Part shown: in pieces, positions 22,067 through 37,395 of the stretch
Numbering within the stretch: the first letter of the stretch is position 1
Layout: each line of letters starts with the position of its first letter
Sequence record: SRR16203515_1384
DNA length: 54,605 bases
Strand: one strand, 5' to 3'
The notes under the pieces: generated by a model
What the model saw: the letters and a program-made list of their open reading frames with translations, nothing else
The model's database searches: none
What the model was told of the DNA's origin: nothing
Program-made: the position numbers and the translations under genes

Positions 22067-22144
22067 GCAAAGTTTTGCACTTGGTTTAGAAATGTTTGGC
22101 CTTCAACCGCTTCCTTGTTAGGGTTTGTCCAAAGGAATGCGTTT

Positions 22145-23032
22145 ATGATTTTCAGATTTCTAATCCTGTCCAGCCTGATCTGGCTATCTGCCTGTTCAAA
22201 TTATGATCCTGAATTGGTGGCCCGTCTAAGTACGAAAGAAGCCAAACATTTGTTTGGCGCCGTAGAACGCGGATCAGAACAGCGACCCGCCCCCCACGGC
22301 AGTTACGCCAAAGGATGCGTTGCAGGGGCGGAACAACTGGCGGAAACTGGTCCAGCGTGGCAGGCGATGCGATTGTCGCGCAATCGCAACTGGGGACATC
22401 CAATCGCGATTGATTTCATCCATGACCTTTCTGCCAAGGCGGCACGGCAATCAGGATGGAACGGTTTGTACATTGGCGATATCTCACAACCGCGTGGTGG
22501 TCCGATGTTAACGGGTCATGCAAGCCATCAAATTGGGTTGGATATCGATATCTGGATGCGCCCGGCCAATAATATGTCACTAAGCACGAAACAACGCGAA
22601 GAGATATCATCCATTTCAATGCGCCGAGCGAATGGTGCCTATGTTAACGATAAGTGGACCAAACAACACCACAACATCATCAAAGCCGCCGCATCTGATC
22701 CACGCACAGCCCGCATCTTTGTTTTCCCAGGGGCCAAGGTTCAAATGTGCAAAGATGAAAAAGGCGATCGGGCATGGTTGAATAAGGTGCGTCCGTGGTG
22801 GGGACACCATTATCATTTTCATGTACGCCTATCCTGTCCAGCGGGTGCAACAAATTGTAAAAATCAGGCACCACCACCCCCAGGCGATGGTTGCAAGGAC
22901 GCAGAGCGTTGGGTCCGCGATATTTTGAACCCGCCGCCCCCAAATCCAAACGCACCAAAACGGAAACCAAAGCCGCCCCTGACATTGGCGCGACTTCCAC
23001 AGCAATGTGTTGGTGTTTTGCAGTCGAACTAA
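22145..23032 (+). CDS. mepA: Penicillin-insensitive murein endopeptidase
   Basis: SRNRNWGHP, IGDISQPRGG, GHASHQIGLDID, HHYHFHVRL; lipobox-like LSAC. Confidence 0.92.
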   Translation: MIFRFLILSSLIWLSACSNYDPELVARLSTKEAKHLFGAVERGSEQRPAPHGSYAKGCVAGAEQLAETGPAWQAMRLSRNRNWGHPIAIDFIHDLSAKAARQSGWNGLYIGDISQPRGGPMLTGHASHQIGLDIDIWMRPANNMSLSTKQREEISSISMRRANGAYVNDKWTKQHHNIIKAAASDPRTARIFVFPGAKVQMCKDEKGDRAWLNKVRPWWGHHYHFHVRLSCPAGATNCKNQAPPPPGDGCKDAERWVRDILNPPPPNPNAPKRKPKPPLTLARLPQQCVGVLQSN

Positions 23033-23127: not shown

Positions 23128-23781
23128 ATGACAAAACTTCTTCCTGGCGTGATCGCCATGGCCATGATTGTGGTCGCCTCAAATATCCTTGTTCAATTTT
23201 TGCTATTGGATGGTCTTCTTACATGGGGGGCGTTTACCTATCCATTTGCCTTTTTGGTCACCGACCTGATGAACCGCGTTTACGGGCCAGCTGCAGCGCG
23301 TCGTGTTGTATTTGTCGGCTTTGTAACGGGTATCATTTGTTCCTTGATAGGTAGCCAAATCATGTTTGACAGCGAATACGGCCCCTATCCTGCCGTCGCG
23401 TTTCGCGTTGCAATTGGATCAGGGATTGCATTCCTGACCGCGCAACTGGTGGACGTTGCCATCTTTGACCGTTTGCGTAGTGGTGCCTGGTGGCGTGCTC
23501 CATTGGCATCAACTGTGATTGGATCTGCGCTGGACACCGCGATATTTTTTACAATCGCATTTTCAGCATCCGTTTCAGTTTTCAGCGAAGCGCAAAATGC
23601 AGAAATCAGCTGGGCATGGGATAGCGCGCCATTGTTGTTGTTTGGTGGCGATGCACCCCTATGGGTATCATTGGCGATTGCCGATTGGGGCGTGAAACTG
23701 TTGCTGGCATTGATTGCATTGGTGCCGTTCCGTATCTTGGTCGCACGTTTGCAAGCGAATACAACATCTGTTGCGAACTAA
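23128..23781 (+). CDS. Queuosine precursor transporter (YhhQ/VUT family)
   Basis: VVASNILVQ, LTWGAFTYPFAFLVTDL.NR.YG, AQLVDVAIFDRLR, S.LDTAIFF.IAF. Confidence 0.92.
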   Translation: MTKLLPGVIAMAMIVVASNILVQFLLLDGLLTWGAFTYPFAFLVTDLMNRVYGPAAARRVVFVGFVTGIICSLIGSQIMFDSEYGPYPAVAFRVAIGSGIAFLTAQLVDVAIFDRLRSGAWWRAPLASTVIGSALDTAIFFTIAFSASVSVFSEAQNAEISWAWDSAPLLLFGGDAPLWVSLAIADWGVKLLLALIALVPFRILVARLQANTTSVAN

Positions 23782-23851
23782 AACATTTTGACTTTTCTAG
23801 AAACTGTGGCACCATCACTAGTAGTGAAACATAGTGAAAGGAGGTGGTCCA

Positions 23852-23908
23852 GTGTCTAGAGAGGTATTGGAGAGAGGTGTCGGAACAGTTTGGGAGGTCC
23901 TTGACTAA
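23852..23908 (+). CDS. Putative 18-aa peptide MSREVLERGVGTVWEVLD
   Basis: GTG start 7 nt after AGGAGG, within an exceptionally long SD; TAA at 23906-08. Confidence 0.4.
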   Translation: MSREVLERGVGTVWEVLD

Positions 23909-23973
23909 GGCAACCCTTGGTCATTGACCAAACGAATTGGTGAAGCCTAACCGGCCCACCTCCGAAATTCTCG

Positions 23974-23998
23974 AGGGTCGTCCGCAACGGGCGACCCT
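23974..23998 (+). terminator. Hairpin closing the small RNA, 14 nt upstream of arfB
   Basis: AGGGTCGTCCG-CAA-CGGGCGACCCT (11 bp, one G-U); weak U-tract. Confidence 0.55.
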
Positions 23999-24012
23999 TA
24001 TCAGTTAGCGAC

Positions 24013-24429
24013 ATGATAACGATAAACGATAAAATCAGCATTCAAGATTGGGAAATCACCGAACAGTTCGTGCGCGCGTCAGGTCCGGGCGGACAGAACG
24101 TAAACAAGGTGTCGACAAAAGTGTCCCTGCGCTTTGAGGCGGACCGTTCCCCGAATTTGAGTGCCGCAGTGAAGGCCCGATTAAAGAAAATCGCTGGCAC
24201 CAAATGGACAACGGACGGCGCAATCATTCTCCAATGTGATGAAACACGCAGTCAAATCCGCAACCGCGAGATTGCGCAAGATCGACTAAAGGATTTGATC
24301 AAGAAAGCCCTGGTGGTTCCCAAACGGCGCCGCCCAACAAAACCAAGTCGTGGAGCAATAGAACGCCGGTTAAAGTCCAAGAAAATAAGGGCAGAGGTGA
24401 AATCACTGCGTTCTGGGAAAATTGAATGA
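24013..24429 (+). CDS. arfB: Alternative ribosome rescue peptidyl-tRNA hydrolase
   Basis: RASGPGGQNVNKV, RSQIRNRE, basic tail PKRRRPTKPS...RRLKSKK. Confidence 0.95.
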   Translation: MITINDKISIQDWEITEQFVRASGPGGQNVNKVSTKVSLRFEADRSPNLSAAVKARLKKIAGTKWTTDGAIILQCDETRSQIRNREIAQDRLKDLIKKALVVPKRRRPTKPSRGAIERRLKSKKIRAEVKSLRSGKIE

Positions 24430-24896
24430 AGGGGTTTCAAATGCTGGTTAGGGTCGCAGTCGTAATTTCGCTTTTATGTTCTGTCGCCTCTGCGCAAGAA
24501 GCGGGGCAAAAAGCACGGTCTGCTTATCAACATTTTTATTGTCACCATACAATCCCACTCATGGCTGATGCAGATGGTGCAAAACTATTAGAGCAACATG
24601 AAAAGCATGTTTGGGCCGGCATAAGAGAAGCCCGCAAAATGATGACCGAGATCGAAAAGTTCAAAGACGCAAACCAAAAAGATTGGTTGGAACATGCACC
24701 CAAAAATTGGGGATATTATCTGAACGCGGGTCCAAGTGAGGATTTTGTAATTGGGATGCTTTATGAACAAGTAAGAGGTGTCGTAGAACGAGAAATCCTT
24801 CAGGAAGAAGGTGGCCGCTATATATCGAATACGGCGCTTTACCAGGAAAATGCCCGAGCAAGCTATGACGAAAATGGGTGCAAGAATCTGAAATGA
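24426..24896 (+). CDS. Hypothetical exported protein
   Basis: Signal peptide ending ASA-QE; ATGA overlaps on both sides. Confidence 0.7.
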   Translation: MKGFQMLVRVAVVISLLCSVASAQEAGQKARSAYQHFYCHHTIPLMADADGAKLLEQHEKHVWAGIREARKMMTEIEKFKDANQKDWLEHAPKNWGYYLNAGPSEDFVIGMLYEQVRGVVEREILQEEGGRYISNTALYQENARASYDENGCKNLK

Positions 24897-36106: not shown

Positions 36107-36182
36107 GGGCCGTTAGCTCAGTTGGTAGAGCAACTGACTTTTAATCAGTGGGTCACAGGTTCGAATCCTGTACGGCTCACCA
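36107..36182 (+). tRNA. tRNA-Lys(UUU)
   Basis: 76-nt cloverleaf GGGCCGT...ACGGCTC-ACCA, anticodon arm ACTGA-CTTTTAA-TCAGT, GGTTCGAATCC T-arm. Confidence 0.97.
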
Positions 36183-37321: not shown

Positions 37322-37395
37322 GGCGGGTTGGCGGAGTGGTGACGCAGCGGATTGCAAATCCGTGTACACCGGTTCGATTCCGGTACCCGCCTCCA
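37322..37395 (+). tRNA. tRNA-Cys(GCA)
   Basis: 74-nt cloverleaf GGCGGGT...ACCCGCC-TCCA, anticodon arm GCGGA-TTGCAAA-TCCGT, U73 discriminator. Confidence 0.97.

Follow-up and report, generated by a model that had tools for sequence, protein, structure and literature searches.

The window analysed here, that is, the whole stretch of 54,605 nucleotides (nt) of sequence record SRR16203515_1384, carries between a gene for a Vut_1/YhhQ-like membrane protein (hereafter yhhQ) and the rescue gene arfB a short element which we identify, with a probability of roughly 0.9, as rreR. This is the Rhodobacterales member of the published "rre" (ribosome-regulated expression) family of small mRNAs, and here it forms a self-contained mini-gene. 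The features of the locus are as follows (aa, amino acids; SD, Shine-Dalgarno; ORF, open reading frame; sORF, small ORF; H1 and H2, helices of the predicted fold):

23128-23781, + strand: yhhQ, an ORF for a Vut_1/YhhQ-like membrane protein of 217 aa (Pfam PF02592 Vut_1, E 3e-29)
23788-23815, + strand: promoter-like element, TTGACT (23788-23793), a 16-nt spacer ending in CTGTGG, and CACCAT (23810-23815); putative promoter
23822-24006, + strand: predicted rreR small mRNA of about 185 nt, both ends predicted
23836-23852, + strand: 17-nt extended SD sequence GAAAGGAGGTGGTCCAG ("17c region") with complementarity to the 16S rRNA 3' end
23840-23847, + strand: 5' arm of H1, the SD core GGAGGUGG, paired with 23956-23963 in the minimum-free-energy fold
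23848-23871, + strand: hairpin H2 of the fold, in which the 3' end of the 17-mer is enclosed together with the GTG start and codons 2-7
23852-23908, + strand: rreR sORF, GTG start (23852-23854), 18 codons (23852-23905) and TAA (23906-23908), peptide V/M-SREVLERGVGTVWEVLD
23902-23923, + strand: 9-bp hairpin with loop CAAC and one G-U pair, which holds the stop codon in its 5' arm and forms the tip of a longer hairpin
23956-23963, + strand: 3' arm of H1, anti-SD-like CCACCUCC (DNA CCACCTCC), paired with the SD core
23974-23998, + strand: terminator-like 11-bp G+C-rich hairpin with loop CAA and a weak U tract CCCUUAUCAGUU
24013-24429, + strand: arfB, 138 aa, RF-1/GGQ domain (Pfam PF00472, E 1.1e-21)

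The genome comparisons took the nearest genome (G001) and its relatives as the reference set. The 16S rRNA gene of G001 ends in ...CTGCGGCTGGATCACCTCCTTTCTAAGG, so that the 17-mer can pair with this end through 16 Watson-Crick pairs and one G-U pair; its last G (23852) is at the same time the base with which the GTG start codon opens. When up to two mismatches to the perfect 17-mer were allowed, a single occurrence was found in the window, where 0.00 are expected from 100 shuffles. The terminator-like hairpin ends 14 nt before the ATG of arfB (24013), and no GGAG-like or other SD motif lies within these 14 nt. All features that had been listed in an earlier reading of the DNA from its letters (the sequence-only reading) are present where it had placed them.

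The rre genes, which possess the longest natural SD sequences described, were reported by Hahn et al. (RNA Biol 2017;14:1353, PMC5711450). According to these authors rreR consists of 16-17 nt of complementarity to the 16S 3' end, ending in the G of a GTG codon, followed by an 18-codon sORF that is conserved in the Rhodobacter/Roseobacter clade. The window element displays this arrangement in full: complementarity of at least 16 nt whose last base opens the GTG, an sORF of 18 codons plus TAA, and a peptide (VSREVLERGVGT...) which equals the family consensus and recurs in records of Dinoroseobacter, Jannaschia, Paracoccus and Cereibacter. The peptides of Dinoroseobacter sp. (VSREVLERGVGTDLEVSS) and of the window (VSREVLERGVGTVWEVLD) are identical in their N-terminal 12 residues. 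The resemblance to rreR and rreB, as given in the main text of PMC5711450, extends to a predicted terminator of its own and to a 17-mer of which the first bases are unpaired and the remainder lies in conserved helices; measured against that text no defining difference was seen, the single G-U pair of the window's 17-mer (GGTGGTCC) being a common variant in the family.

Since the element has been published as rreR it is not undescribed. The sequence-only reading had put it forward as an undescribed system, and membership of a known family, to which a sub-threshold relative in Rfam (CC2171) may be added, removes that novelty. What we present is thus a rediscovery. The context added for work on rre genes is incremental and comprises anchoring to yhhQ, adjacency of arfB as the usual, not invariable, downstream neighbour, a conserved fold which hides all but four bases of the 17-mer, and equivalence with CC2171. 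The words "arfB", "Rfam" and "CC2171" have no occurrences in the main text of PMC5711450, whose figures and supplement lay outside the search and may show the context, and in the open-access literature our search found no link between rre genes and arfB.

Our named-species sample comes from a search of species genomes for a 28-base pattern, which listed 80 loci. Their titles include Paracoccus, Rhodobacter, Cereibacter, Dinoroseobacter, Jannaschia, Celeribacter and Rhodovulum, all of them genera listed in PMC5711450. Only titles of Rhodobacterales type were obtained, bar some unclassified metagenome-assembled genomes (MAGs) and one probably mis-binned MAG. L195, with the rreR motif, is on a contig whose label reads "uncultured Exiguobacterium sp.", a Firmicute; mis-binning or mislabelling of a MAG contig is the probable cause.

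The spread of the element, which the sequence-only reading had proposed to check, was assessed in one genome per genus from 201 genera of the window's family. An exact 19-nt motif was found in 138 of these genera, and its reversed control in none; it is single-copy per genome except in G014, where it occurs twice. Among 40 further genomes with arfB and without the exact motif, 27 carry a variant motif together with an 18-codon ORF. Substitution-only matching misses insertion and deletion variants and the remaining 13 of 40 "without rreR" are therefore an over-count; at least six of them possess such variants and two keep the terminator only. rreR is near-universal in the sampled family. At L092, L102, L112, L117, L122, L111 and others, as well as at L099, L104, L106, L109, L115 and L126, the 16S match is shortened (GAAAGGAGGTGCTCTAG) or one or two bases fewer precede the start. 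Because of the shortened matches in some genera, complementarity 3' of the SD core is not kept everywhere.

The ORF measures 18 codons in 72/80 copies of the family set and in 75/80 of the named-species loci. For finer comparison 73 family copies were aligned (unfitted MAFFT); eight of the 81 collected (L015, L018, L054, L058, L100, L104, L113 and L124) were left out as spurious or of another type. The stop stands at a fixed column, codon 19, where TAA, TAG or TGA is found in 73/73 rows and TGG never. The sORF frame is open in all 73 copies, and the other two frames hold stops in 31/73 and 32/73.

For the predicted transcript (23822-24006) the folding energy is -76.6 kcal/mol (z = -4.86), a value equalled by none of 200 shuffles. 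In this fold GGAGGUGG pairs with CCACCUCC, the start codon lies inside a 10-bp hairpin, and of the 17-mer only the first four bases, GAAA, are unpaired; the published model of rreB likewise leaves no more than the first bases of its 17-mer free (PMC5711450). A fold of 23788-24012 as a single RNA was dropped because promoter DNA pairs with the ORF there, and was replaced by that of the transcript starting at about 23822. RNAalifold and base-pair probabilities averaged over 73 single-sequence ensembles give the same rod-like architecture, which comprises the closing helix H1, H2, a short helix adjoining H1, a long hairpin with the stop codon in its 5' arm, and the terminator at the end. Paired cells make up 91.9% of the alignment; shuffling lowers this to 88.4% (none of 500 shuffles is as high), and sliding the partners to 57% or less. 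H1 has a mean pair probability of about 0.82 over the 73 copies, and each of its seven core pairs (columns 17-23) is unpaired in 0-4 of 73 cells; variants of its 3' arm (27 C-to-U, 14 A-to-G) keep the pairing by wobble (27 G-U, 14 U-G). H2 (probability 0.6-0.73) is paired in 94.2% of cells, with changes on both sides in 4/9 pairs, and the terminator helix in 94.7-98.9%, with changes on both sides in 10/12 pairs. The pairs of the stop hairpin are partly out of register in the MAFFT alignment (69.9% paired); its apical pairs are 100% paired. Recounted with the loop (CAGC, CAAC or CAGA) as anchor, the stop codon lies wholly inside an uninterrupted stem in 39/73 copies. The proposal of a structured small RNA that combines a super SD and a short ORF with an anti-SD sequence folding back on the SD is supported.

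Position 12 of the 17-mer (window 23847) alternates between A and G across genera. A G at this place forms a G-U pair with 16S rRNA, but an extra G-C pair with the internal anti-SD sequence (25/73), with which A cannot pair, an apparent trade-off of ribosome affinity against self-sequestration. Codons 7-9 (GGAGAGAGGUG, 23869-23879) form an internal SD-like stretch, which could pair with CCACCUCC when a ribosome holds the true SD.

A permissive Rfam search returned CC2171 (RF01867) over its full model (positions 1-159; window span 23828-23997; 36.3 bits, E 1.4e-5, cut-off 75). CC2171 is a Caulobacter small RNA (sRNA) which has been validated by northern blot in Methylorubrum (bioRxiv 10.1101/2022.01.24.477521). 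Its consensus begins with the same GAAAGGAGGUGAUCCAGUGUCU as the window element, and its 5' consensus CAACAA..GAAAGGAGGUGAUCC plus start codon, as well as its terminator, align at high posterior probability; the middle of the model, in contrast, is not aligned to the window, and its peptides are of the MSHCH.. or MSS..EQPL types, whereas those of the window type read VSRxxLERGVGT. Matches of the CC2171 type occur in 18/19 genomes of the same family, none above the cut-off, and of 31 relatives none reaches it. Because its score falls below the cut-off the window element is a relative of CC2171, not a curated member, and the Rfam comparison that had been proposed thus yielded a relative, but one matched at sub-threshold level only.

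In the class at large CC2171 matches were found in 24/151 genomes, five of them above the cut-off. All 22 full-length matches possess an extended SD, a start codon (7 GTG, 13 ATG, 2 TTG and no others) and an ORF of 18-32 codons. The peptides differ across the class, and at L033 and L041 the reading frame through the conserved GGAGCAGCCUC hairpin is a different one. CC2171, filed by Rfam as a non-coding sRNA, is the same kind of mini-gene as rreR. Two rre genes (L001 and L020) are present in G014, a genome of the window's own family; one is of rreR type and lies between yhhQ and arfB, and the other, at a contig end, is of CC2171 type (66 bits; MSHCFING..., 21 codons).

Several observations weigh against the identification of the element as a translated rreR mRNA, or against parts of it. 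The score of 36.3 bits is below the gathering cut-off of Rfam. Entropy is nearly flat over the three codon positions (15.5, 17.0, 16.2), which points to weak selection on the peptide, and distinct single-base variant codons are synonymous to non-synonymous as 25:50 where 39:114 are possible, a mild enrichment. As regards codon conservation, frame, length and stop are kept, but peptide selection is weak; we conclude that the frame and its ends are preserved, while a good part of the sequence conservation probably reflects the RNA. The covariation expected of an SD/anti-SD helix was found only in part. The helix is conserved and its changes are wobble-compatible, but the seven core pairs of H1 show no change on both sides, and their support comes from conservation and from these wobble-compatible changes; since the SD side is fixed by 16S rRNA the core cannot covary. 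An alternative partner of the anti-SD sequence exists in the ORF (GAGGUG), where 79.7% of cells are paired, that is, poorer than in H1. Both ends of the transcript are predicted, and the evidence from RNA libraries consists of contigs, whose coverage, gaps and ends are not firm on transcript ends or levels. Binding to 30S subunits, weak translation and start-codon-dependent decay were demonstrated for rreB of Bradyrhizobium, not for rreR, and the main text of PMC5711450 gives for rreR data only on a synthetic peptide, which stayed unstructured.

The rreB mRNA measures 165 nt, has a 17-nt SD and starts with GTG. It is found mainly in the ribosome fraction, co-sediments with the 30S subunit and is weakly translated, which the authors attribute to the long SD and the GTG start; tight 30S binding needs the 5' extension of the SD, and replacement of the start codon stabilises the mRNA, its turnover being start-codon-dependent (PMC5711450). 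The suggestion that the window element is a 30S-binding or dual-function RNA fits these data, which were obtained with a homologue. By analogy with rreB, the free 5' GAAA of the 17-mer may serve as a toehold that seeds pairing with the 16S tail, and the 30S subunit would then open H1 and H2 and be held very tightly through as many as 17 pairs. Translation of the peptide would be kept weak by the excessive length of the SD and by the GTG start, few ribosomes would proceed through the 18 codons to terminate in the stop hairpin, and the ribosome-bound mRNA would presumably be turned over in a start-codon-dependent manner.

The element may have a promoter of its own: a TTGAC sequence lies 47-49 nt before the 17-mer in 45/73 copies; TTGAC(A) is followed after about 11 nt by a conserved CTGTGnCAnCnT. 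This may represent an extended -10 (TGn) promoter with a poor -10 hexamer. In the window the -10 hexamer matches at 3/6 positions and a generic sigma-70 scan calls no promoter at the site; nor does a generic scan call a terminator there, since the hairpin at 23974-23998 fails the U-tract rule. The promoter-like element and the terminator helix are both conserved, and contigs from RNA libraries of two studies cover the site and span the hairpin into arfB: X5 (23821-24278), whose start at 23821 cannot define a transcript end, and X9 (23710-24335).

The gene order around rreR was examined in the same genus sample, for which 150 places of 188 ArfB matches are listed; the adjacency counts below hold among the matches listed. 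yhhQ stands directly upstream of rreR in 102/104 genera and at 69/70 named loci, with 45-162 nt between its end and the 17-mer. Directly downstream, arfB is found in 77/89 genera and at 44/72 named loci, and is absent from that place in 12/89 and 28/72, respectively. Of 108 genera with the motif and a listed arfB place, 92 have arfB on the same strand 152-721 nt past the start codon (median 211), five have it 1.5-3.4 kb downstream and 11 elsewhere. Where all three places are listed (89 genera) rreR has both neighbours in 76, yhhQ only in 11, arfB only in one and neither in one. rreR is thus anchored more tightly to yhhQ than to arfB. The linkage to arfB emphasised in the sequence-only reading is frequent but not constant, and the variable downstream genes weaken it. 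All 11 Paracoccus loci lack arfB downstream of rreR, two loci without arfB have convergent TruA-like and thiolase genes after rreR, and four genomes with the motif (G230, G311, G312 and G362) have no ArfB match. Of the frames picked downstream of arfB-less rreR genes, 7/9 have no Pfam match and are probably wrong frames in G+C-rich DNA. Outside the family arfB lies within 1.5 kb at only 1/22 rre loci, and there it is divergent. This locus (L032 in G037, another family of the class) has a 30-codon ORF, and its arfB homologue lies on the opposite strand, some 460 nt upstream. yhhQ and arfB are adjacent in 114/129 genera, including three without rreR between them. In the latter (L094 in G304, L121 in G249 and L105 in G300) the spacers measure 135, 189 and 43 nt; two keep the terminator hairpin only and the third nothing, and they look like natural deletions of rreR. 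We conclude that yhhQ-rreR-arfB looks like an inherited block of genes, not a dedicated switch.

The terminator stem ends at most 60 nt before the arfB start in 35/60 copies, and an SD-like motif precedes arfB in 10/60 and is lacking in 50/60. Where arfB lies within tens of bases of the terminator, as in most genera of the family, part of its transcription is probably read-through that starts at the yhhQ or rreR promoters. One might go further and regard rreR as a cis-acting, ribosome-dependent leader, an attenuator in which ribosomes occupying, or trapped on, the super SD and the ORF decide whether transcription passes the hairpin at 23974-23998 into arfB. The same-strand position of arfB, the short gap, the scarcity of SD-like motifs before it, the weak U tract in the window and the contigs X5 and X9 bridging the hairpin would all agree with this, as would the speculation of Hahn et al. 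that the trapping of a ribosome on rreB may end in cleavage and rescue of the ribosome (PMC5711450). It is, however, very unlikely. The 5' arm of the terminator has no consistent partner in nascent RNA lacking the 3' arm (best mean probability 0.19 over 73 copies), that is, there is no conserved antiterminator, and the strength of the U tract does not track the closeness of arfB, the mean being 5.7-6.3 T in all classes. Furthermore, rreR persists where arfB is not downstream, all Paracoccus loci included, and in the four genomes without an ArfB match; yhhQ and arfB remain adjacent where rreR has been lost; and outside the family arfB is nearby at a single locus. Contigs do not prove that one transcript spans the site, and RNA libraries may contain DNA. 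The idea of a ribosome-occupancy sensor gating read-through into arfB, to which the sequence-only reading had given room, is not supported, given the missing antiterminator, the loci without arfB downstream and the 11 breaks that kept yhhQ against one that kept arfB. rreR resembles attenuators such as trpL/rnTrpL of Sinorhizobium, which is ribosome-dependent and has a leader peptide, in its short ORF, terminator hairpin and SD-less downstream gene, and the terminated leader of that system persists as a small RNA (PMC6614838). Unlike these it has neither a conserved antiterminator nor a constant downstream gene, its ORF contains no regulatory codons, and its distinguishing feature is the 17-nt SD rather than codon-specific stalling. 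In short, rreR fails two tests of the attenuator class, the alternative helix and the constant target. In a looser version rreR would double as a sensor of ribosome state: trapped ribosomes, which in the proposal of Hahn et al. would need rescue, would alter the folding or decay of a yhhQ-rreR-arfB read-through transcript and thereby set how much of the SD-less arfB is made. The short gap, the scarcity of SD-like motifs before arfB and the bridging contigs would be compatible with it, but neither a switch helix is conserved nor a partner constant, and we hold it to be equally improbable. In Escherichia coli, arfA is controlled by tmRNA via a hairpin-cleaved non-stop mRNA, the hairpin lying inside the rescue gene itself. 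Common to both would be a hairpin that ends a short coding region near a rescue gene, and rescue capacity sensed via the fate of ribosomes on a special mRNA; in contrast to arfA, rreR is a gene separate from the rescue gene arfB, and is known here from sequence, not from cleavage or non-stop products. Were this version true, it would represent a new kind of feedback in most Rhodobacteraceae, distinct from arfA/tmRNA control, with arfB set by the load of stuck ribosomes.

Two further explanations dispense with arfB. rreR might be functionally tied to the upstream yhhQ, as an element of its 3' end or as a partner of its mRNA. The constancy of the upstream place and its short spacing, the 11 broken blocks in which rreR stayed with yhhQ against one in which it stayed with arfB, and the X9 contig, which spans the 3' end of yhhQ together with rreR, all point in this direction. 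Yet a conserved promoter-like element fills the short spacer, and breakpoints there would therefore be selected against without any functional tie; moreover the neighbours of rre genes differ in other orders, the 22 loci outside the family yielded no yhhQ, and the main text of PMC5711450 states that rre gene context is not conserved outside Bradyrhizobiaceae. We consider such a tie extremely improbable. Alternatively, rreR could be a non-coding regulatory RNA whose 17-mer or CCACCUCC acts in trans on ribosomes or on the ribosome-binding sites of mRNAs, as a 30S sponge or in a hibernation-like manner, the ORF being incidental. This would suit the flat codon-position entropy and weak peptide selection, the lack of peptide conservation outside the family with the GGAGCAGCCUC hairpin read in different frames, and, from PMC5711450, the location of rreB mainly in the ribosome fraction, its weak translation and the unstructured synthetic peptides. 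It is difficult to reconcile with start codons that are only ATG, GTG or TTG at all 22 class-wide loci, with a stop fixed at codon 19 and never replaced by TGG, and with an ORF length kept at 18 codons in 72/80 and 75/80 copies. In addition, overproduction of the ribosome-binding RNA had no effect on growth, and the authors argue against simple recruitment of ribosomes, or a sponge, as the main role (PMC5711450). An incidental ORF is thus unlikely, and identification of the element as rreR, a small mRNA with its own sORF, is preferred.

At curated cut-offs Rfam recognises in the whole window only two transfer RNAs, both further downstream (36107-36179 and 37322-37392). Other sub-threshold matches near the site (CRISPR-DR19, PreQ1 inside arfB, and two eukaryotic long non-coding RNA models) had E values of 1-7, and we regard them as chance. 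Upstream of yhhQ lies a Peptidase_M74 gene (22115-23032), specifying a MepA-like murein endopeptidase, and arfB is followed by a gene for a 156-aa protein (24426-24896) which falls into no Pfam family and whose conservation is confined to the genus.

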